Assembly: GCF_009834185.1 (NCBI RefSeq)
Contig: NZ_CP047173.1
Span: 1,391,725 to 1,455,724, forward strand
Source of the DNA: Rathayibacter sp. VKM Ac-2760
Lineage (GTDB): Bacteria; Actinomycetota; Actinomycetes; Actinomycetales; Microbacteriaceae
Reading direction: 5' to 3'
Length of the DNA: 64,000 bases
The translations under genes and the position numbers were made by a program. Numbering within the stretch: the first letter of the stretch is position 1; each line of letters opens with the position of its first letter. Below the pieces are notes generated by a model. It was not told where the DNA came from. It was given only the letters and a program-made list of their open reading frames with translations, and searched no databases. Of this stretch, positions 8,707-16,800 are shown piece after piece.

Positions 8707-9851
8707 CAGGCGCCGGCGGTCTTCAGCACGCCGCAGGCGCCGCAGGCCGCGCAGCCCGCCTTCTGGCCGGAGGAGAGCATCCCCGCCGCGATCAGCAGCG
8801 CGGCGACCTGCTCGCTCACCTTCTCCAGCAGCGAGCCGGCCGGCGGCAGGACGTGGTCCACCTCCGTCGCGAGCGTGCCCCTGAGCGGCCGGAACGGCAC
8901 CACGAACGGGTAGATCCCGCGCTCGATCAGCTCGCCGGCGCTCGCGACCAGCTCGTCGGGATCCTCGCCGAGGCCGACGAGCAGGTAGGTCGAGACCTGG
9001 TTGCGGCCGAAGATCCGCACCGCCTCGTCCCAGGCCTCCCAGTACTTCGCGGTCGAGACGCGCGCCTTGCCGGGGGTCCAGCGGCGGCGGATGTCGTCGT
9101 CCATCGACTCGATGTGGATGCCGATCGAGAGGGCGCCGGCGTCCTTCAGCTCCTGCAGCGCGGCGAGGTCCTCCGGCGGCTCGCACTGCACCTGGATCGG
9201 CAGCCCGGGCACGGCCTCGAGCACAGCGCGGACGCAGCGGGCGAGGTGCCGGGCGCCGCGGTCGCGACCCTTCGAGGTGCCGGTGGTCATCACCATCTGG
9301 CGGATGCCGTCCAGCCGGGCGGCTGCCTCGGCGACCTCGGCGAGCTGCGCGGGGGTCTTCACGGCGATGGTGGAGTCGTTGGCGAGCGAGGCCTCGATCG
9401 CGCAGAAGCGGCAGCGCTCGGCCGCGTCGTAGCGCATGCAGGTCTGCACGACGGTGGTGGCGAGGATGTTCCGGCCGTGCAGGCGGGCGATCTTCTCGTA
9501 GGAGACGCCGTCGGCGGTGCTGAGGTCGTAGAAGCGCGGGCGCTTCACCGGCTCCACGTCGAGGCCGATGTCGGCGCCGTCGAGCAGGAGCCGGCCGTTG
9601 GTCACGGCGTAGGGGCTCTTCGGGTTGACGGGGATGGCGGCGCCGAGGCCGCCGAGCATCACGTGGCCGTCGTCGCTCGGGCCGGCGCCCGCCTCGCGGT
9701 GCACGGGGGCGTCGACGCGGATGCCCTGCAGGGCGATGTCGACGCGGGTGCGCAGGGCGGACGGGGCGGCTCCGCAGCCGGAGTCGGCGGGAGCGGTGTC
9801 GGTCGGGGCACTGTCGATGGTGCGGAGGCGGGGCATCTGCAGGTCGGTCAT
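8706..9851 (-). CDS. radical SAM protein (MSMEG_0568 type)
   Basis: 381-aa ORF with Cys triad C138-x8-C147-x2-C150 (TCMRYDAAERCRFCA) and a C-terminal CAACGAC. The cluster context matches Nit1C. Confidence 0.8.
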   Translation of the reverse strand: MTDLQMPRLRTIDSAPTDTAPADSGCGAAPSALRTRVDIALQGIRVDAPVHREAGAGPSDDGHVMLGGLGAAIPVNPKSPYAVTNGRLLLDGADIGLDVEPVKRPRFYDLSTADGVSYEKIARLHGRNILATTVVQTCMRYDAAERCRFCAIEASLANDSTIAVKTPAQLAEVAEAAARLDGIRQMVMTTGTSKGRDRGARHLARCVRAVLEAVPGLPIQVQCEPPEDLAALQELKDAGALSIGIHIESMDDDIRRRWTPGKARVSTAKYWEAWDEAVRIFGRNQVSTYLLVGLGEDPDELVASAGELIERGIYPFVVPFRPLRGTLATEVDHVLPPAGSLLEKVSEQVAALLIAAGMLSSGQKAGCAACGACGVLKTAGA

Positions 9852-9929
9852 GGTGCTCCTCGGATTCTCGAGTCGAGCGGTGCGCGACGGCGAGTCCGAC
9901 GTCGTGAGCCTCCATTAGGTCAACGCGGT

Positions 9930-9945
9930 GTTTCGGAGCGATGAC
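9930..9945 (-). promoter_or_regulatory. candidate GlnR-type box (GTCAT-n6-GAAAC on minus strand)
   Basis: The plus strand reads GTTTCGGAGCGATGAC. It resembles the actinobacterial GlnR a/b-site pattern gTnAc-n6-GaAAc and sits in the divergent control region. Confidence 0.2.
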
Positions 9946-10019
9946 ATCGGGAACGCGATCGTGTTACATCCGGCGGCCGCCCCGGAGCCCGCCCGGCGTC
10001 ACGCAGGCTTCTTCTGGCC

Positions 10020-10035
10020 GAAACCACTTCGAAAC
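10020..10035 (+). promoter_or_regulatory. candidate GlnR-type b-site pair (GAAAC-n6-GAAAC)
   Basis: GAAACCACTTCGAAAC lies about 195 nt upstream of the Sll0783-like start. Confidence 0.2.
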
Positions 10036-10229
10036 ACGAGCGGCCTTGACTGGACGCAGTCGGGACGAACGCTCCCGACCCGGCCCCGTCGCTCCGCTCG
10101 CCCTCGAACCGCCCCGAGCGACGCCGGCCTCTGCATCACAGCACCGCCCGTTCCACCCGGCACTCCTGTCCCTGCACCACTCGCTCGCGCCCCGCCCGGC
10201 GCGCTCCTCACCGAACCCCGGAGGTTCCC

Positions 10230-10799
10230 ATGACCGACGACCAGACCACCCCCGCCGACGTCAGCACGGACGACCAGGCCGCGATCGAAGAGCAGATCAG
10301 CGCCAACATCGAGAAGTCGCGCGGCGAGATCGCGCACCCCTCGCTGCCCAAGGGCAGCAACCTCTACGGCTCCACCAAGGTCTTCCCCGACTACCAGGCC
10401 GAGCCCGGGCAGTCCTACTTCACCCTCGTGCACGGCATCGCGCACGAGTCCTCGGTCAGCTTCGTCGCGATCCTGCAGGCGACCCGCGCGGCCCGCAAGG
10501 GCTTCGAGTCGGCCGTCTACTTCTACGGCCCCGGCACGATCAACGCGATGGCGACCCGTGGCTTCCCGACGGTCGGCGACTCCGGCTTCCCGGGGGAGCA
10601 GAACATCAACGACGCCCTGAAGACCTTCATCGACGAGGGCAACCGCGTCTTCGTCTGCCGCTTCGGCATGGCGCTGCACGGCCTGCGCGAGGAGGACCTG
10701 ATCGAGGGCACCATCCCCTGCCACCCGCTCGACGTGCAGGACGCCGTCATCCACTACGCCCGCAAGGGCGCCATCATCAACTCGACCTACAACCTCTAG
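10230..10799 (+). CDS. MSMEG_0572/Sll0783-family nitrogen-starvation response protein
   Basis: 189-aa ORF. GGAGG lies 6 nt upstream of the ATG. It is the first gene of the plus-strand arm of the Nit1C-like cluster. Confidence 0.75.
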   Translation: MTDDQTTPADVSTDDQAAIEEQISANIEKSRGEIAHPSLPKGSNLYGSTKVFPDYQAEPGQSYFTLVHGIAHESSVSFVAILQATRAARKGFESAVYFYGPGTINAMATRGFPTVGDSGFPGEQNINDALKTFIDEGNRVFVCRFGMALHGLREEDLIEGTIPCHPLDVQDAVIHYARKGAIINSTYNL

Positions 10800-10808
10800 G
10801 CCGCCGCC

Positions 10809-11687
10809 ATGACCGTCGTCGGATCGGTCGCGGCGAACTTCACCCGCGACCTCGATCAGAACTACGCGCTCATCGCCGCGCTGGCCGAGGAGGCCCGGGA
10901 GAAGCGGGTCGAGTTCCTCGTCCTGCCCGAGGCCGCGATCGGCGGCTACCTCTCCTCGCTCGGCAATCACGGCGACACCGTCAAGACGACGACCCGATCG
11001 ATGCCACCGGCGATCGCGCTGGACGGGCCGGAGCTGCGCCGGGTGCAGGAGATCGCGGGCGACCTGCTGGTCGCGATCGGCTTCTGCGAGCTCGACGAGG
11101 ACGGCGAGACCCGCTACAACGCGGCCGCCCTGCTCGACGGCGGGCAGATCTACGGCAGCTACCGCAAGGTGCACCAGCCGCTCGGCGAGCACATGTCCTA
11201 CTCGCCCGGGCCCGGCTACTCGGTCTTCGAGACGCCGGTCGGCCGGGTCGGGCTGCAGATCTGCTACGACAAGGCCTTCCCGGAGGCGGCCCGCTCGATG
11301 GCGCTGGACGGGGCGGAGATCATCGCCTCGCTCTCGGCCTGGCCGGCCGCGCGGACGGCGACGGCGGAGAACCTGCAGGAGGACCGCTGGACCTACCGCT
11401 TCAACCAGTTCGACATCGCGCGGGCCCTGGACAACCAGGTGTTCTGGCTGGCGTCGAACCAGTCCGGCACCTTCGGGTCGCTCCGCTACGTGGGCAACGC
11501 GAAGGTCGTCGATCCGGGCGGCAACATCCTCGCGACGACGCTGCTCGGCTCCGGCATGGCGGTCGCCGACATCGACGTGCGGGGCACCTTCGAGGCGATG
11601 CGCGGCGGGATGTTCCACCTGCGCGACCGCCGGCCGGACGCCTACGACATCGACCGCGTCTGGAGCGGAGGGCTGGTCCATGCCTGA
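10809..11687 (+). CDS. nitrilase / carbon-nitrogen hydrolase (Nit1C-type)
   Basis: 292 aa with an intact E-K-C triad context (LVLPEAA, YRKVHQP, LQICYDKAFPE; Cys codon 11262-11264). Confidence 0.85.
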   Translation: MTVVGSVAANFTRDLDQNYALIAALAEEAREKRVEFLVLPEAAIGGYLSSLGNHGDTVKTTTRSMPPAIALDGPELRRVQEIAGDLLVAIGFCELDEDGETRYNAAALLDGGQIYGSYRKVHQPLGEHMSYSPGPGYSVFETPVGRVGLQICYDKAFPEAARSMALDGAEIIASLSAWPAARTATAENLQEDRWTYRFNQFDIARALDNQVFWLASNQSGTFGSLRYVGNAKVVDPGGNILATTLLGSGMAVADIDVRGTFEAMRGGMFHLRDRRPDAYDIDRVWSGGLVHA

Positions 11688-12000
11688 GATGACCTTCCAC
11701 GTCCGCTGGCCGGACGGCGTCGAGGAGCGCTGCTACTCGCCGAGCCTGGTGATGCACGACTACCTCGCCGAGGGCGAGAGCTATCCGCTCGAGGACTTCG
11801 TCGGGCGCTCGACCGAGGCGCTGCGGCTGGCCAGCGAGCGGGTGCGCGCGAAGTTCGGCTTCGCCTGCACCTCCGCGCTGCAGCAGGAGTCGGAGATCGT
11901 CGCGGCCGCCGCGCGCTTCGACGGCGGGCGGGTGCGGGTGCTGGCGATGGATCCGCCGCTGCCGTCCGCTGCTCCGACCGTGCAGGGGACGCGCGCATGA
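11680..12000 (+). CDS. MSMEG_0570-family small protein
   Basis: 106-aa ORF. It has an 8-nt overlap with the nitrilase gene and an ATGA overlap with the flavoprotein gene. Confidence 0.7.
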   Translation: MPEMTFHVRWPDGVEERCYSPSLVMHDYLAEGESYPLEDFVGRSTEALRLASERVRAKFGFACTSALQQESEIVAAAARFDGGRVRVLAMDPPLPSAAPTVQGTRA

Positions 12001-13271
12001 CCGCGCTCGAGAACGGCCGGCACCTGCCGGTCGCCGTGATCGGCGCCGGTCAGGCCGGGCTGTCGATCAGCCGCCTGCTCACGGACGAGGGCGTCGAGCA
12101 CCTCGTGATCGAGCGCGACACGATCGCGCACGACTGGCTCGACCGCCGCTGGGACAACTTCACCCTCGTCACGCCGAACTGGCAGTGCCGGCTCCCGGGT
12201 TACCCCTACGACGGCGACGACCCGCACGGCTTCATGACCCGCGACGAGGTGCACGCCTGGGTGCGGCGCTACGCGGAGTCGTTCGACGCTCCGGTCGTGG
12301 AGGACACCGAGGTGCTGCGGCTGCGCGAGGGCGCGGACGGGGCCTTCGAGATCGTCACCTCGCGCGGCACGATCACGGCCGACCAGGTCGTCGTCGCGAC
12401 CGGCGGCTACCACCGGCCGGTGCTGCCGGCGGTCGCGCACCGCATCCCGGACTCGGTCGTGCAGCTGCACTCGGCCGACTACCGCTCGGCCGCGGCGCTG
12501 CCCGAGGGCGGGGTGCTCGTGGTCGGCTCCGGCCAGTCCGGCGCGCAGATCGCGGAGGACCTCTTCCTCGAGGGGCGCGCCGTGCACCTGGCGCTGGGGA
12601 CCGCTCCGAGAGTCGCCCGGTTCTACCGCGGGCGGGACTGCGTCGCGTGGCTCGCCGACATGGGCGTCTACGACGTGCCGGTGCACGCGCAGGTGGGCGG
12701 GCTCTCGAAGCGGGAGTCGACCAATCACTACGTCACCGGGCGCGGCGGCGGGCGGGATATCGACCTGCGGGCGTTCGCGCGCGACGGGATGCACCTCTAC
12801 GGGCGGCTGCAGCAGGTCGACGGTGCGTCGCTCCGGTTCGCGCCGACGGCCGAGGCGTCGCTCGACTACGCGGACTCGGTCGCCGAGTCGATCAAGAACG
12901 ACATCGACGCCTACATCGAGCGCTCGGGCGTGCAGGCGCCGACCGAGGCCCGCTACACCCCGGTCTGGCGGCCGGAGCGCGAGATCGAGGAGCTGGACCT
13001 GGCGGCCGCCGGGATCACGAGCATCGTCTGGGCGGTCGGCTTCCGCGCCGACTACTCCTGGATGCAGATCGGCGTCTTCGACGGCGCCGGGCACCCCACC
13101 CACCGCCGCGGCGCGACCGCGGTGCCGGGGCTGCACTTCCTCGGGCTGCCGTGGCTGAACACCTGGGGCTCCGGCCGCTTCGAGGCGATCGCGCGGGATG
13201 CGGAGCACGTGGTGCAGCAGCTGCTCGGCGGCGCGCGGTTGGACCGGTTCGAGGGCGCCGCGGTACGGTGA
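11997..13271 (+). CDS. flavin-dependent oxidoreductase (MSMEG_0569 type)
   Basis: 424 aa with two dinucleotide-binding motifs (VIGAGQAGLS, VVGSGQSGAQIA). Confidence 0.8.
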   Translation: MTALENGRHLPVAVIGAGQAGLSISRLLTDEGVEHLVIERDTIAHDWLDRRWDNFTLVTPNWQCRLPGYPYDGDDPHGFMTRDEVHAWVRRYAESFDAPVVEDTEVLRLREGADGAFEIVTSRGTITADQVVVATGGYHRPVLPAVAHRIPDSVVQLHSADYRSAAALPEGGVLVVGSGQSGAQIAEDLFLEGRAVHLALGTAPRVARFYRGRDCVAWLADMGVYDVPVHAQVGGLSKRESTNHYVTGRGGGRDIDLRAFARDGMHLYGRLQQVDGASLRFAPTAEASLDYADSVAESIKNDIDAYIERSGVQAPTEARYTPVWRPEREIEELDLAAAGITSIVWAVGFRADYSWMQIGVFDGAGHPTHRRGATAVPGLHFLGLPWLNTWGSGRFEAIARDAEHVVQQLLGGARLDRFEGAAVR

Positions 13272-13298
13272 CGGCCGCGCGCTCGCCCCGGGCGCGCC

Positions 13299-13334
13299 TC
13301 CGGCCGCTCGTCCGGCCGCTCGTCCGGCCGGGCG
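13299..13334. repeat. 12-bp tandem repeat x3 (TCCGGCCGCTCG)
   Basis: Three consecutive copies (the third is degenerate) in the spacer between the flavoprotein gene and the second C-N hydrolase gene. Confidence 0.6.
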
Positions 13335-13352
13335 GGGCGAGAGAAGAGGACC

Positions 13353-14207
13353 ATGTCGAGCATCACCCTGGCCGCGGTCGCGGCGCACTTCGGCCGCGAT
13401 CTCGAGCGCACCCTCGTCAAGCTGCCCGGCATGATCGCGAGCGCGCAGGAGCGCGGGATCGACCTGCTGGTGCTGCCCGACGCGACGCTCGGCGGCTACC
13501 TGCTCGACATGCACCACCCCGGCCCGGACGACCTGCCGCAGGCCGTGGAGGTCGACGGGCCGGAGGTCGCCGCGGTCGCGGCGATGGCGGGGGACACGAC
13601 GGTGTGCTTCGGCATCGCCGAGCGCGCGCTCGAGGGCGGCGAGGTCCGCCGCTACAACTCGGCGGTCTGCGTGCAGGGCGGCCGGGTGATCGGGACGCAC
13701 CGGAAGGTGCACCTGCCGCTGGGCGAATCGGAGGCGTACGCGGCGGGCGACGCGTTCCGCTCCTTCGACTCCGCGGTCGGGCGGATCGGGATGATGATCG
13801 ACTTCGACAAGACCTTCCCCGAGTCGGCGCGCTCGCTGGCGCTGGACGGGGCGGAGATCCTCTGCTGCCTCAGCGCCTGGCCGGCCAGCGTCACCGACCG
13901 GTCCGACCGGATCCGCAACGACCGGCAGGCGCACCTGTTCGACCTCTACGACTGCGCGCGCGCCGCCGAGAACCAGGTCTACCTGGTGTCCTCGAACCAG
14001 ACAGGCGTGCTCGGCGGGCTGCGCTTCCTCGGGCAGGCGAAGGTCGTCGATCCGGCCGGCGAGATCATCGCGAAGACGTGGGCGAAGGGCGGGCTCGCGG
14101 TCGCGACGGACGACGTGTCCGCGTCCGTGGCGCGAGCCCGGCGGAGCATGGACCACCTGCGGGACCGCGCCGTGCACGCGTACCACGGGGCGGCGCCCAC
14201 CGGCTGA
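13353..14207 (+). CDS. carbon-nitrogen hydrolase family paralogue lacking the catalytic Cys (MSMEG_0566-like position)
   Basis: 284 aa, alignable to the nitrilase. It has LVLPDAT (Glu to Asp), HRKVHLP (Lys kept) and MMIDFDKTFPE (Cys to Asp, codon 13800-13802). Confidence 0.8.
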   Translation: MSSITLAAVAAHFGRDLERTLVKLPGMIASAQERGIDLLVLPDATLGGYLLDMHHPGPDDLPQAVEVDGPEVAAVAAMAGDTTVCFGIAERALEGGEVRRYNSAVCVQGGRVIGTHRKVHLPLGESEAYAAGDAFRSFDSAVGRIGMMIDFDKTFPESARSLALDGAEILCCLSAWPASVTDRSDRIRNDRQAHLFDLYDCARAAENQVYLVSSNQTGVLGGLRFLGQAKVVDPAGEIIAKTWAKGGLAVATDDVSASVARARRSMDHLRDRAVHAYHGAAPTG

Positions 14208-14278
14208 CCCGGCCGGCCTGCCCGCCCGGCTGCCCGGCCCCGCTGCCCACCCGCCCGCTCGATCGAGAAGGAGACCCC

Positions 14279-15385
14279 GTGCGGATCGCGCAGCTGACCT
14301 ACTCCACCAGGCCCCGCGGCGGCGTGGTGCACACGCTCGCGCTCTCGGAGGCGCTGGCCCGGCGCGGGCACGAGGTGACCGTCTGGACGCTCGGCCGCGG
14401 CGGTGACTCCGCCTTCTTCCGCGCGGTCGATCCCGCCGTGGCGGTCCGGGTCGTGCCGTTCGCGGCGCGAGAGGGCGAGAGCGTCGGCGACCGGATCGTC
14501 CGCTCCCTCGATGCGCTCGCGGCCGGGCTCGCGGCGACGGGCGGGACGGAGTGGGACGTCGTGCACGCGCAGGACTGCATCTCGGCCAACGCCGCGCTCC
14601 GTGCCGGCGCCGCCGGACCGGGCGGGCTGCTGCGCACCGTGCACCACCTCGATGAGTTCACGACGCCGGCGCTGATCGACTGCCACGAGCGCGCGCTCAC
14701 CGGGCCGGCCGCGCTGCTCGCGGTCTCGGCGTCGGTCGCGGGCGACGTCGCCGCAGGCTGGGGCCGCGAGCCGACCGTGATCCCGAACGGCGTCGACGCC
14801 GCGCGCTTCGCCGCCGCCGCGGGCGGCCAGGGGGTCGCCGAGTGGCGGGCCGAGCTCGGCCGCTACGTGCTCGCGCTCGGCGGCATCGAGCCGCGGAAGG
14901 GCAGCGTCGACCTGCTGGCGGCGTTCGCGGGACTCGCGCCCGGCACGGTGCTCGTCTTCGGCGGCGGGGAGACGCTGTTCGACTACCGGGGCTATCGCGA
15001 GGAGTTCGAGCGCCGGGCGGCCGAGCTGGGGGTGACGCCGGTCGTGCTCGGCACGGTGCCCGAGGAGCGGCTCGCAGCGCTCGTCGCCGGCGCGGCGGTG
15101 CTCGGCTTCGTCTCGACCAAGGAGGGCTTCGGCCTCGCGGCGATGGAGGCGCTCGCCGCGGGGGTGCCGGTCGTCGCGCGCGATCTGCCGGTGCTGCGCG
15201 AGGTGTTCGGCGGGACGGTGGCGTACGGGAGCGACGTGGCGGGCATCCGGGCGGCGCTGGCCGCGGCGCTCGCGGGGGAGGCGCCGGACCCGCGGCCCGG
15301 GCGGGAGCTGGCCTTCTCGCACTCCTGGGACGACGTCGCCGCGAGCCACGAGGCCCTGTACCGGTCGCACGCGAGCGCCGCCTGA
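14279..15385 (+). CDS. glycosyltransferase (MSMEG_0565 type, GT-B/GT4-like)
   Basis: GTG at 14279 is preceded by GAAGGAG. The sequence VRIAQLTYSTRPRGGVVHTLALSEALARRGHEV ... EGFGLAAMEALAAGVPVV is GT-like; the upstream part of track ORF 12185..15385 is shadow. Confidence 0.8.
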   Translation: MRIAQLTYSTRPRGGVVHTLALSEALARRGHEVTVWTLGRGGDSAFFRAVDPAVAVRVVPFAAREGESVGDRIVRSLDALAAGLAATGGTEWDVVHAQDCISANAALRAGAAGPGGLLRTVHHLDEFTTPALIDCHERALTGPAALLAVSASVAGDVAAGWGREPTVIPNGVDAARFAAAAGGQGVAEWRAELGRYVLALGGIEPRKGSVDLLAAFAGLAPGTVLVFGGGETLFDYRGYREEFERRAAELGVTPVVLGTVPEERLAALVAGAAVLGFVSTKEGFGLAAMEALAAGVPVVARDLPVLREVFGGTVAYGSDVAGIRAALAAALAGEAPDPRPGRELAFSHSWDDVAASHEALYRSHASAA

Positions 15386-16800
15386 TGCGCCGCTCGTTCT
15401 CGCGCTGCTTCTCGGCGCTCGCCGCGGAGGATCCCGAGCGGGTCGTGGTCGTCGCGGACGACGCGACGCTCACCGCGGGCGCCCTGGACCGGGCCTCGAA
15501 CCGGCTCGCGCGCGCCTACGCGGCGCGGGGCGTCACTCCGGACTCGCTCGTCGCGGTCTCGCTGCCGAACTCGGCCGAGCTGGTGCTGGCCTGCGCCGCG
15601 ATCTGGAAGGCGGGCGCGACGCCGCAGCCGCTCTCGCGCGGGCTCTCGGCGCGGGAGCTCGCCGAGGTCGGCGCGCTCGGGCGGCCCACGCTGAGCGTCG
15701 GCGTCGAGCTGGAGGGCGTGCCGTTCGTCCCCGCCGGCTTCGAGCCCGACCCGGCGCTGCCGGACGACGAGCTGCCGGATCTCCGGGCGGCGTCGTGGAA
15801 GGCGCCCGCCTCCTCCGGCAGCACCGGTCGGCCGAAGATCGTTCTCGCGGCGGCTCCCGCGCTGATGGACCCGACGCAGCCGGTCGCGGCCTTCCTGCCG
15901 CGGGAGGGGGTGCAGCTCGTGGCCGGGCCGCTCACCCACTCCGCGACCTTCACCTACGCGTTCCGCGGGCTCCTGACCGGGCAGCGGCTGGTGATCCTGC
16001 CGCGCTTCGACGAGGCGCGGGTGCTCGCCGCGATCGCGGCGCACCGGGTGACCTGGGCGCTGCTGGTGCCGACGATGATCCACCGGCTGCTGCGGACGCC
16101 CGCGCACCGGGACGCGGACGTGTCGTCGCTCGAGACGGTGCTGCACCTGGGCTCGCCGTGCCCGCCCGCGGACAAGCGCGCGCTGATCGACTGGGTCGGG
16201 GCGGAGAAGGTGGTCGAGGTCTACGCGGGCAGCGAGTCGAACGGGCTGACGATGATCCGCGGCGACGAGTGGCTGGAGCGGCCCGGCAGTGTCGGCCGGC
16301 CGATCGGCGGCACGGAGCTTCGGGTGCTGCGCCCGGACGGGACGGAGTGCGCGGTCGGTGAGCCGGGGCGGGTCTGGCTGAAGCGCGGCGAGCCGACCTA
16401 CCGCTACCTCGGCGGGGAGTCGAAGCGGACGGAGGACGGCTGGGACACGCTCGGCGACGTCGGCTCGGTCGACGCCGACGGCTACCTGACCGTGCTCGAC
16501 CGGGCCGACGACCTGATCCTGCGCGGCGGGGTGAACGTCTACCCGGCGGAGATCGAGCGGGTGCTGGAGGAGCACCCGGCGGTGCGCGGGGCGGTCGCGT
16601 ACGGCGTCCCGGATGCGGAGCTGGGCCAGGCGATCGAGGCGGTGGTCGACATCGCGGACGCCGCAGTGACGGCGGAGGAGCTGCTCGCCTTCGCGCGCGA
16701 GCACCTCGGCTCACGCGCGCCGCGGGCGCTGCGGCTCCAGCGCTCGCCGCTGCGCGACGACGCGGGCAAGGTGCGGCGCGCGGCGCTCGCGGACGACTGA
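15385..16800 (+). CDS. AMP-dependent synthetase/ligase (acyl/aryl-CoA ligase family)
   Basis: The ATG at 15385 shares 1 nt with the GT stop (TGATG). Adenylation motifs are SSGSTGRPK, YAGSE and GDVGSVDADGYLTVLDR. Confidence 0.8.
   Translation: MRRSFSRCFSALAAEDPERVVVVADDATLTAGALDRASNRLARAYAARGVTPDSLVAVSLPNSAELVLACAAIWKAGATPQPLSRGLSARELAEVGALGRPTLSVGVELEGVPFVPAGFEPDPALPDDELPDLRAASWKAPASSGSTGRPKIVLAAAPALMDPTQPVAAFLPREGVQLVAGPLTHSATFTYAFRGLLTGQRLVILPRFDEARVLAAIAAHRVTWALLVPTMIHRLLRTPAHRDADVSSLETVLHLGSPCPPADKRALIDWVGAEKVVEVYAGSESNGLTMIRGDEWLERPGSVGRPIGGTELRVLRPDGTECAVGEPGRVWLKRGEPTYRYLGGESKRTEDGWDTLGDVGSVDADGYLTVLDRADDLILRGGVNVYPAEIERVLEEHPAVRGAVAYGVPDAELGQAIEAVVDIADAAVTAEELLAFAREHLGSRAPRALRLQRSPLRDDAGKVRRAALADD

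Follow-up and report, generated by a model that had tools for sequence, protein, structure and literature searches.

An aspartate in place of the nucleophilic cysteine in the second carbon-nitrogen hydrolase of an actinobacterial MSMEG_0565-0572-type gene cluster

We analyzed a gene for a protein with the carbon-nitrogen (CN) hydrolase fold, here designated CNH2, in a 64,000-nucleotide stretch of the Rathayibacter sp. VKM Ac-2760 genome (contig NZ_CP047173.1, positions 1,391,725 to 1,455,724; the whole stretch is referred to as the window). Together with a second protein of this fold (CNH1), CNH2 belongs to a gene cluster corresponding to MSMEG_0565-0572 of M. smegmatis, known there as gpr (GlnR-dependent peroxide resistance), in which it takes the MSMEG_0566 position. 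It carries Asp at the column of the nucleophilic Cys. That this residue (Asp150) is family-wide and under selection appears to us nearly certain. It is also very probable that CNH2 does not use canonical thiol hydrolysis, and so is not a canonical amidase or nitrilase.

The first-pass annotation of the region had aligned CNH2 with its paralog and claimed that the nucleophilic Cys and the first catalytic Glu were both replaced by Asp, with the catalytic Lys and the second Glu kept. Its motifs, coordinates and register were all correct, as judged by phmmer and by the codons read from the DNA, in which both replacement codons are GAC (Table 1). When CNH2 was compared by phmmer with nitrilase-superfamily structures (3ivz, 7ovg and 6ypa), its segment vlpDat was aligned with vlpElf, which holds the first catalytic Glu, hrKvhl fell on yrKihl, which holds the catalytic Lys, and mmiDfd fell on vmiCfd, which holds the nucleophile Cys146 (Ala in the C146A entries). 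The register held under a profile hidden Markov model, in this alignment to structures of the PDB and in a fold model. The triad of CNH2 reads Asp43-Lys118-Asp150 instead of the Glu-Lys-Cys of the nitrilase superfamily; the second Glu is present as Glu125, and Glu157 of the FPE motif is also retained. The active-site shell (Lys118, Glu125, Asp150, Asp152, Lys153 and Glu157) is net-acidic. A single sequencing error cannot account for Asp150, since a change from Cys (TGY) to Asp (GAY) takes two base changes. A purine-rich, Shine-Dalgarno-like segment (gagaagagga) stops 3 bases before the ATG of the gene.

The Pfam CN_hydrolase profile (PF00795) matched CNH2 over the whole domain (residues 7-257 on profile positions 3-248) with E=8e-37 and 127.4 bits (gathering score 23.2). 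The AlphaFold2 model, for which 65 sequences were aligned, had a predicted local distance difference test score (pLDDT) of 90.6 and a predicted template modeling score (pTM) of 0.91, with residues 181-190 as the sole low-confidence stretch. In this model a strand (143-149) is followed by a helix (150-154), and residue 150 lies at their junction, i.e., at the nucleophile elbow. Foldseek recovered the alpha-beta-beta-alpha fold, with D-carbamoylase 6lei at a template modeling (TM) score of 0.85 (E=2e-23) and D-carbamoylases, N-carbamoylputrescine amidase and Pyrococcus amidase at TM 0.75-0.85. CNH2 is thus full-length, and its predicted fold is intact. None of the curated NCBIfam enzyme models reached its cut-off with CNH2: the top scores were those of archaeal nitrilase (98.8 bits, cut-off 500) and AguB (95.5 bits, cut-off 410), and the models for aliphatic amidase (AmiE; NF009802) and Nit6803-family nitrilase (TIGR04048) gave 30.7 bits (cut-off 427; no Cys at the nucleophile column) and 32.3 bits (cut-off 502.6). 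A Pfam scan of CNH2 found no DNA-binding or signaling domain.

Conservation of the active site was examined in 329 homolog clusters, comprising the 120 nearest from Micrococcales, 120 of the Nocardiaceae type and 89 of the Mycobacteriaceae type (including Mycolicibacterium), and in 72 copies of CNH2 and 69 of CNH1 extracted from fetched genome and metagenome loci. Asp150 was found in 120/120 Micrococcales clusters, in which Asp43 was present in 119/120, and the pattern Asp-Lys-Glu-Asp in 120/120 Nocardiaceae-type and 89/89 Mycobacteriaceae-type clusters. In the pooled set, Asp43 was conserved in 328/329, and Lys118, Glu125, Asp150, Asp152, Lys153, Glu157, Gln192 and Leu195 each in 329/329; Pro156 was invariant in the 65-sequence alignment. 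All 72 locus copies likewise have Asp150, encoded by GAC in 69 and by GAT in 3, so that the only change at this codon is synonymous. The replacement of Cys by Asp is therefore family-wide, with no homolog or locus copy having Cys, and the Lys and second Glu reported by the first-pass annotation as kept are invariant.

A search of 1.8 billion representatives yielded remoter Asp-type members, at 50-61% identity, which have Gly, His or Asp in place of the first Glu and all keep Asp150; two of them sit in complete clusters alongside a Cys-bearing CNH1. Corynebacterium orthologs have Ser at column 43. The first Glu thus appears to be dispensable in CNH2, because Gly, His or Ser occupies its column in orthologs that still belong to complete clusters. 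In addition, a small Asp-type subclade was observed on short metagenomic contigs (P0129 at locus L076, P0126 at locus L077, and P0163) with no gpr cluster neighbors. Its pattern is Ala-Gln-x-Asp, i.e., the first Glu is Ala, Lys is Gln, the second Glu is lost and Asp at the Cys column is kept. Three other sequences (P0134, P0140 and P0155) were partly frameshifted. P0131 (669 aa) looked like a fusion of CNH2 with a glycosyltransferase, which would provide a Rosetta-stone link, and was rejected, as its in-frame patches are split by Arg-rich out-of-frame stretches, indicating a frameshifted assembly artifact.

A move of the nucleophile to another Cys was also considered and rejected, because no Cys is invariant in CNH2 among the 329 homologs. 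The best conserved, Cys85 (325/329) and Cys106 (316/329), tolerate Ala or Ser. These two residues (window 13605-13607 and 13668-13670) lie on the strands of a hairpin (83-94 and 97-108) and, if its register is a simple one, would be opposite one another; a structural or redox-sensitive pairing is possible.

Ratios of nonsynonymous to synonymous substitution rates (dN/dS) against close Rathayibacter relatives were 0.07-0.125 for CNH2 and 0.03-0.09 for CNH1; the remaining genes of the cluster had ratios of about 0.07-0.38, most of them above that of CNH2. Mean pairwise protein divergence was also computed over 56 genomes for nine cluster proteins (Table 1). Judging from these comparisons, CNH2 appears to be under strong purifying selection and decay can be excluded, given the low dN/dS, a divergence that is the third lowest of nine and the synonymous-only changes at codon 150. 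This agrees with the first-pass annotation, which had argued for retention of the gene rather than decay and had suggested a pseudoenzyme partner, a binding subunit or altered chemistry as its role, options between which computation by itself does not decide. CNH2 therefore shows two marks of a pseudoenzyme, absence of an essential catalytic residue and purifying selection. The sequence data are best described by a selected pseudo-enzyme or a non-canonical enzyme, as the invariance of Lys118, Glu125 and Asp150 is compatible with non-canonical catalysis.

CNH1, at the MSMEG_0571 position, is 44% identical to CNH2 (E=5e-81) and has the motifs LVLPEAA, YRKVHQP and LQICYDKAFPE. Its active site is Glu-Lys-Glu-Cys in 69/69 loci. 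The first-pass annotation had called this neighbor a nitrilase, which does not hold in the strict sense: with 39.9 bits, CNH1 stays far below the cut-off (502.6) of TIGR04048, the model for Nit6803 nitrilases, and is an unassigned CN hydrolase outside the Nit6803 family. In a neighbor-joining tree (200 bootstraps), CNH1, CNH2 and two Cys-type metagenomic sisters are separated from other CN hydrolases with 100% support. Within this group, the Asp-type sequences form a single clade (80%) that is sister to the CNH1 clade (90%), a topology that points to a single duplication and a single change from Cys to Asp. At 40 positions each paralog is conserved but the two differ from one another, and 13 of the 40 fall in residues 179-206 (a loop and helix 189-207); among the changes, Arg182, Trp194 and Arg197, invariant in CNH1, are Val, Gln and Leu in CNH2. 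In the cluster, CNH1 and CNH2 always occur together, in Micrococcales, Corynebacterium, Rhodococcus, Mycolicibacterium and two metagenomic lineages.

To our knowledge, every characterized enzyme of the nitrilase superfamily uses a Cys thioester or thioimidate intermediate, and we know of no member shown to work without Cys. Mutants of these enzymes in which Cys is changed to Ala or Ser are inactive. Because characterized members need the Cys intermediate and CNH2 has no thiol nucleophile, canonical amidase or nitrilase activity is excluded for it. The site nevertheless still does something specific, as Asp150, Lys118, Glu125, Asp152, Lys153 and Glu157 are invariant in cluster-embedded members. 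Nitrilase-fold proteins are obligate dimers or oligomers. We tentatively favor, at rather low confidence, a CNH1:CNH2 hetero-oligomer in which CNH2 would be the ligand-binding, non-thiol protomer. CNH2 appears to have arisen once by duplication of the Cys-bearing CNH1 of the cluster and to have had Asp at the nucleophile position ever since. In the favored scheme the two proteins would assemble on the usual two-fold dimer of the nitrilase fold, and the remodeled pocket of CNH2 might bind, without hydrolyzing it, a pathway intermediate that is probably cationic or amine-bearing, with Asp150 as the key ligand contact. Several observations point to such a partnership: the six residues of the shell are invariant although the first Glu is dispensable; CNH2 always accompanies CNH1, while Nit6803-type clusters manage with one nitrilase; nitrilase folds are obligately oligomeric; and there are natural tandem proteins that pair a Cys-bearing and a Cys-less domain.

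It should be noted, however, that several observations weigh against a hetero-oligomer. Mirror-tree partial correlations over 56 genomes, to which no significance test is attached, were no stronger for CNH2 with CNH1 (0.31) than with the MSMEG_0572 protein (0.30) or the CoA ligase encoded downstream (0.30), and they do not discriminate between the readings considered here. The CNH1 and CNH2 genes are not adjacent, and CNH2 is more often located beside the glycosyltransferase gene. The replacement of the pocket or lid residues Trp194 and Arg197 of CNH1 by Gln192 and Leu195 means that CNH2 probably does not bind the CNH1 substrate as CNH1 does. The subclade found outside clusters indicates that an Asp-type protein apparently can exist without the cluster context. 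Finally, the invariance of Lys118, Glu125 and Asp150 exceeds the need of a scaffold, and retained catalysis or precise ligand binding would fit it at least as well.

Retained catalysis is a possible, if somewhat unlikely, explanation. CNH2 would then be a true but thiol-independent enzyme acting on another substrate, in which Asp150 would work alongside Lys118 and Glu125 as the nucleophile or as a general base, much as ketosynthases become decarboxylases through a Cys-to-Gln change. Candidate substrates are acyl-adenylate, acyl-phosphate, thioester, imine, oxime or glycosyl species produced by the AIR-synthase (AIRS)-like, radical SAM, flavin or glycosyltransferase enzymes of the cluster. The shell residues, present in all 329 homologs, and the synonymous-only codon 150 are what such an enzyme would show, whereas a dead site should drift, as happens in tandem CN hydrolases whose second domain is of the Gly type. 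Moreover, the active-site loops of CNH2 are conserved as much as those of the active paralog, and specificity-type residues changed along with the nucleophile (Trp to Gln192, Arg to Leu195). On the other hand, the lack of any known superfamily member that works without Cys and the inactivity of Cys-to-Ala and Cys-to-Ser mutants speak against such chemistry, and the column of the general-base Glu is freely Gly, His or Ser in cluster-embedded orthologs. The out-of-cluster subclade, which drops both Lys and the second Glu and keeps Asp, also looks more like a case of a binding or structural Asp than of a catalytic triad. The stronger form of this proposal, that Asp150 is catalytic and that the CNH2/MSMEG_0566 clade is the first of nitrilase-fold enzymes with carboxylate-based, thiol-independent chemistry on an intermediate of the cluster, we regard as unlikely.

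It is less probable still that CNH2 is a stand-alone, non-catalytic binder that does not associate with CNH1 and serves to carry, sequester or sense a pathway intermediate, ammonium or an amine. The conserved net-acidic pocket, lid residues unlike those of CNH1, a mirror-tree signal with no preference for CNH1 and the Asp-type proteins outside clusters would all be accommodated by such a role. They have to be set against the strict co-occurrence with CNH1 in every complete cluster examined, the absence of a DNA-binding or signaling domain and the general knowledge that nitrilase folds are obligately dimeric or oligomeric. That Asp150 reflects a local mutation, a sequencing error, early pseudogenisation or a misregister hiding the true nucleophile Cys has practically no chance of being correct, as nothing speaks for this idea except that a CN hydrolase without Cys would a priori be taken to be broken, and it is contradicted by the two base changes needed, by Asp in 329/329 homologs and 72/72 loci, by a dN/dS of about 0.1, an intact open reading frame (ORF) and a model pLDDT of 90.6, and by a register on which three independent methods agree in a protein with no invariant Cys.

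The window is 74% G+C, and the closest matches to it are from Rathayibacter (closest protein 92% identical, closest loci 96% identical). All seven families TIGR04042-04047 and TIGR04050 exceed their cut-offs within 7321-15385, and the window therefore holds a complete MSMEG_0565-0572-type cluster (Table 1), which is an actinobacterial relative of Nit1C. The matches to the two domains of the MSMEG_0567-type protein lie on residues 425-860 of a long ORF (7321-9915). The glycosyltransferase gene has no entry of its own in the ORF list, being in frame with and enclosed by a spurious 1066-aa ORF (12185-15385). In Mycolicibacterium litorale (L078) the order is 0572-CNH1-0570-0569-0568-0567-CNH2-0565, which is that of the M. 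smegmatis numbering, and CNH2 there has Asp-Lys-Glu-Asp; an annotated Rhodococcus plasmid (L074) has the identical gene set. This synteny bears out the assignment of CNH2 to the MSMEG_0566 position, already made in the first-pass annotation. The Mycolicibacterium order, with CNH2 after 0567, also breaks the 'invariant block CNH1-0570-0569-CNH2' that had been derived from 66 loci and was discarded. The glycosyltransferase gene directly follows CNH2 in most loci, but not in Curtobacterium. Cluster membership alone is universal for CNH2 among the loci examined. An acyl-CoA ligase gene follows the cluster in most of the Micrococcales and Corynebacterium loci examined (L001-L066), but is not at that position in Rhodococcus (L074) or Mycolicibacterium (L078), and may have joined the pathway only in certain lineages.

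Several further features of the cluster were noted. The stop codon of CNH1 is TGA in 66/66 loci and overlaps the start of the 0570 gene (ATGCCTGA). A fusion of MSMEG_0571 with MSMEG_0569 by selenocysteine read-through has been proposed (PMC6039565). CNH1 and the 0569 gene share a reading frame in 62/66 loci; however, such a fusion is not conserved, because in 22 of these 62 the frame between the two holds stops, and the overlaps of CNH1, 0570 and 0569 (window 11680-11687 and 11997-12000) look like ordinary overlapping-gene coupling. With the GlnR-box half-site pattern GTnAC-n6-GnAAC, one-mismatch matches were found at 9930-9945 (-) and 10020-10035 (+), in the intergenic region between the divergent radical SAM and 0572 genes; the pattern is not enriched window-wide (10 found, 19.8 expected), which makes these two half sites weak evidence. 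An aldehyde dehydrogenase gene (5798-7261, -) adjoins the 0567 end, a position in which it is conserved among the closest Rathayibacter loci (L001, L002 and L004) alone. One copy of the cluster, on a 1.86 Mb metagenome contig (L073), looks degraded: two ORFs make up its flavoprotein, its CNH2-like ORF is frameshifted in part, and the vicinity lacks a radical SAM and an AIRS-like gene. A nitrile hydratase operon is located downstream of it.

Table 1. Positions in the window of CNH2, its active-site codons, CNH1 and the other cluster genes, with mean pairwise protein divergence
Feature	Position	Strand	Mean divergence	Remarks
CNH2	13353..14207	+	0.217 (third lowest of nine)	284 aa, CN_hydrolase fold, MSMEG_0566-position ortholog, Asp at nucleophile Cys column
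Codon 43, GAC = Asp	13479..13481	+		column of first catalytic Glu
Codon 118 = Lys	13704..13706	+		catalytic position, kept; 329/329 homologs, 72/72 loci
Codon 125 = Glu	13725..13727	+		second catalytic position, kept; 329/329 homologs, 72/72 loci
Codon 150, GAC = Asp	13800..13802	+		nucleophile Cys column, strand-to-helix elbow
D152-K153-x-x-P156-E157	13806..13823	+		part of IDFDKTFPE motif, common to CNH2 and active paralog CNH1
Gln192 and Leu195	13926..13937	+		clade-diagnostic; invariant Trp194 and Arg197 in CNH1; start of helix 189-207
CNH1	10809..11687	+	0.170	Cys-bearing CN hydrolase, MSMEG_0571 position; E41-K120-E127-C152 intact
MSMEG_0567-type GNAT and AIR-synthase-like fusion	7321..8643 (upstream end approximate)	-	0.335	TIGR04045 114.9 bits; TIGR04050 434.8 bits
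MSMEG_0568-family radical SAM protein	8706..9851	-	0.226	TIGR04043 496.5 bits, cut-off 303.7
MSMEG_0572/Sll0783-family protein	10230..10799 (start codon uncertain)	+	0.209	TIGR04044 242 bits, cut-off 109.85
MSMEG_0570-family small protein	11680..12000	+	0.376	TIGR04042 126.1 bits, cut-off 79.85
MSMEG_0569-family flavin-dependent oxidoreductase	11997..13271	+	0.302	TIGR04046 634.7 bits, cut-off 498.35
MSMEG_0565-family GT4 glycosyltransferase	14282..15385	+	0.314	directly 3' of CNH2; TIGR04047 403.8 bits, cut-off 259.85; frame and third-position G+C (GC3) analysis
Acyl-CoA ligase	15400..16800 (start approximate)	+	0.419	downstream of cluster

The gene family and the cluster are already known and generically annotated, and the part that appears to be new is the loss of Cys. 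A literature search on Cys loss in this family or on a pseudo-nitrilase found nothing relevant, with most subscription journals outside its reach, so that an earlier mention is possible. In databases, homologs of CNH2 are named amidase, nitrilase, carbamoylase or acyltransferase. The present data correct an annotation carried over hundreds of genomes, as CNH2 is very probably not the named amidase; only one of the two "hydrolases" of the cluster would be capable of canonical C-N hydrolysis, and the other would be a partner, a binder or an enzyme with new chemistry. The clade-wide invariant Asp, strong constraint and constant Cys-bearing sister change how the pathway should be dissected. This matters because clusters of the MSMEG_0565-0572 or Nit1C type are widespread, respond to nitrogen starvation with strong induction, and have been connected with peroxide resistance and with cyanide or nitrile assimilation. 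For the nitrilase superfamily, CNH2 adds a natural, conserved clade with a swapped nucleophile. It also offers a handle on a pathway unsolved since 2005, and if Asp150 were catalytic, knowing the reaction of CNH2 would give access to what the Nit1C/gpr pathway does, a 20-year-old puzzle.

The closest known system is the gpr cluster of M. smegmatis (MSMEG_0565-0572), which is needed for peroxide resistance (PMC6039565) and is induced more than 100-fold by GlnR under nitrogen starvation (PMC6039565, PMC4222082, PMC4617892), the one species for which this induction has been demonstrated. By synteny, CNH2 is in the same position of the same eight-gene cluster as MSMEG_0566, although the cluster in the window is divided into two divergent units and is followed by the acyl-CoA ligase gene. 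MSMEG_0566 is called a "putative aliphatic amidase" in the literature and was assumed to release nitrogen as an amidase, a role that is unlikely for a family without the catalytic Cys. Nit1C, in its 2005 description (PMC1199592), has seven genes, of which just one encodes a CN hydrolase, a Cys-bearing nitrilase. It shares with the window the Sll0783-like protein, radical SAM, GNAT, AIRS-like, small and flavoproteins, and its nitrilase (NitC/Nit6803/Sll0784; PMC1199592, PMC7815647) is likewise a member of the CN hydrolase fold within a homologous conserved cluster. However, this nitrilase represents a different branch of the superfamily from CNH1 and CNH2, both of which score far below the TIGR04048 cut-off.

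Among characterized folds, the amidases and carbamoylases (D-carbamoylase 1erz/6lei, N-carbamoylputrescine amidase 5h8i and Pyrococcus PH0642 amidase 1j31/6ypa) have with CNH2 a common fold, the catalytic-position Lys, the second Glu, the geometry of the nucleophile elbow, and the xDxDKxFPE and AWP motifs. CNH2 differs from them in having Asp for the nucleophilic Cys and Asp or a variable residue for the first Glu. Tandem CN hydrolases of ~560-610 aa were also detected as remote hits (P0158, P0174, P0178, P0179, P0265 and P0264). Their N-terminal domain has Glu-Lys-x-Cys, and in the C-terminal domain the Cys is replaced by Gly, or by Asp in P0264. As in the CNH1/CNH2 pair, one copy of the nitrilase fold keeps Cys and the other has lost it, but here the copies are fused, belong to another clade with no link to gpr and mostly have Gly as the replacement; they seem to form a family of their own whose second domain is apparently degenerate. 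A functional analogy to the proposed partnership is provided by the ketosynthase/chain-length-factor (KS-alpha/KS-beta) pairs of type II polyketide synthases, in which the nucleophilic Cys of the partner is an invariant Gln, and by the KSQ domains of polyketide synthases. A decarboxylase role has been shown for KS-beta, and a Cys-to-Gln change turns ketosynthases into decarboxylases. These pairs differ from CNH1/CNH2 in fold, chemistry and the replacing residue, which is Gln; in both cases, however, a paralog located beside an active enzyme has had its Cys swapped for one invariant polar residue and is itself maintained by selection, perhaps as a partner in the case of CNH2.

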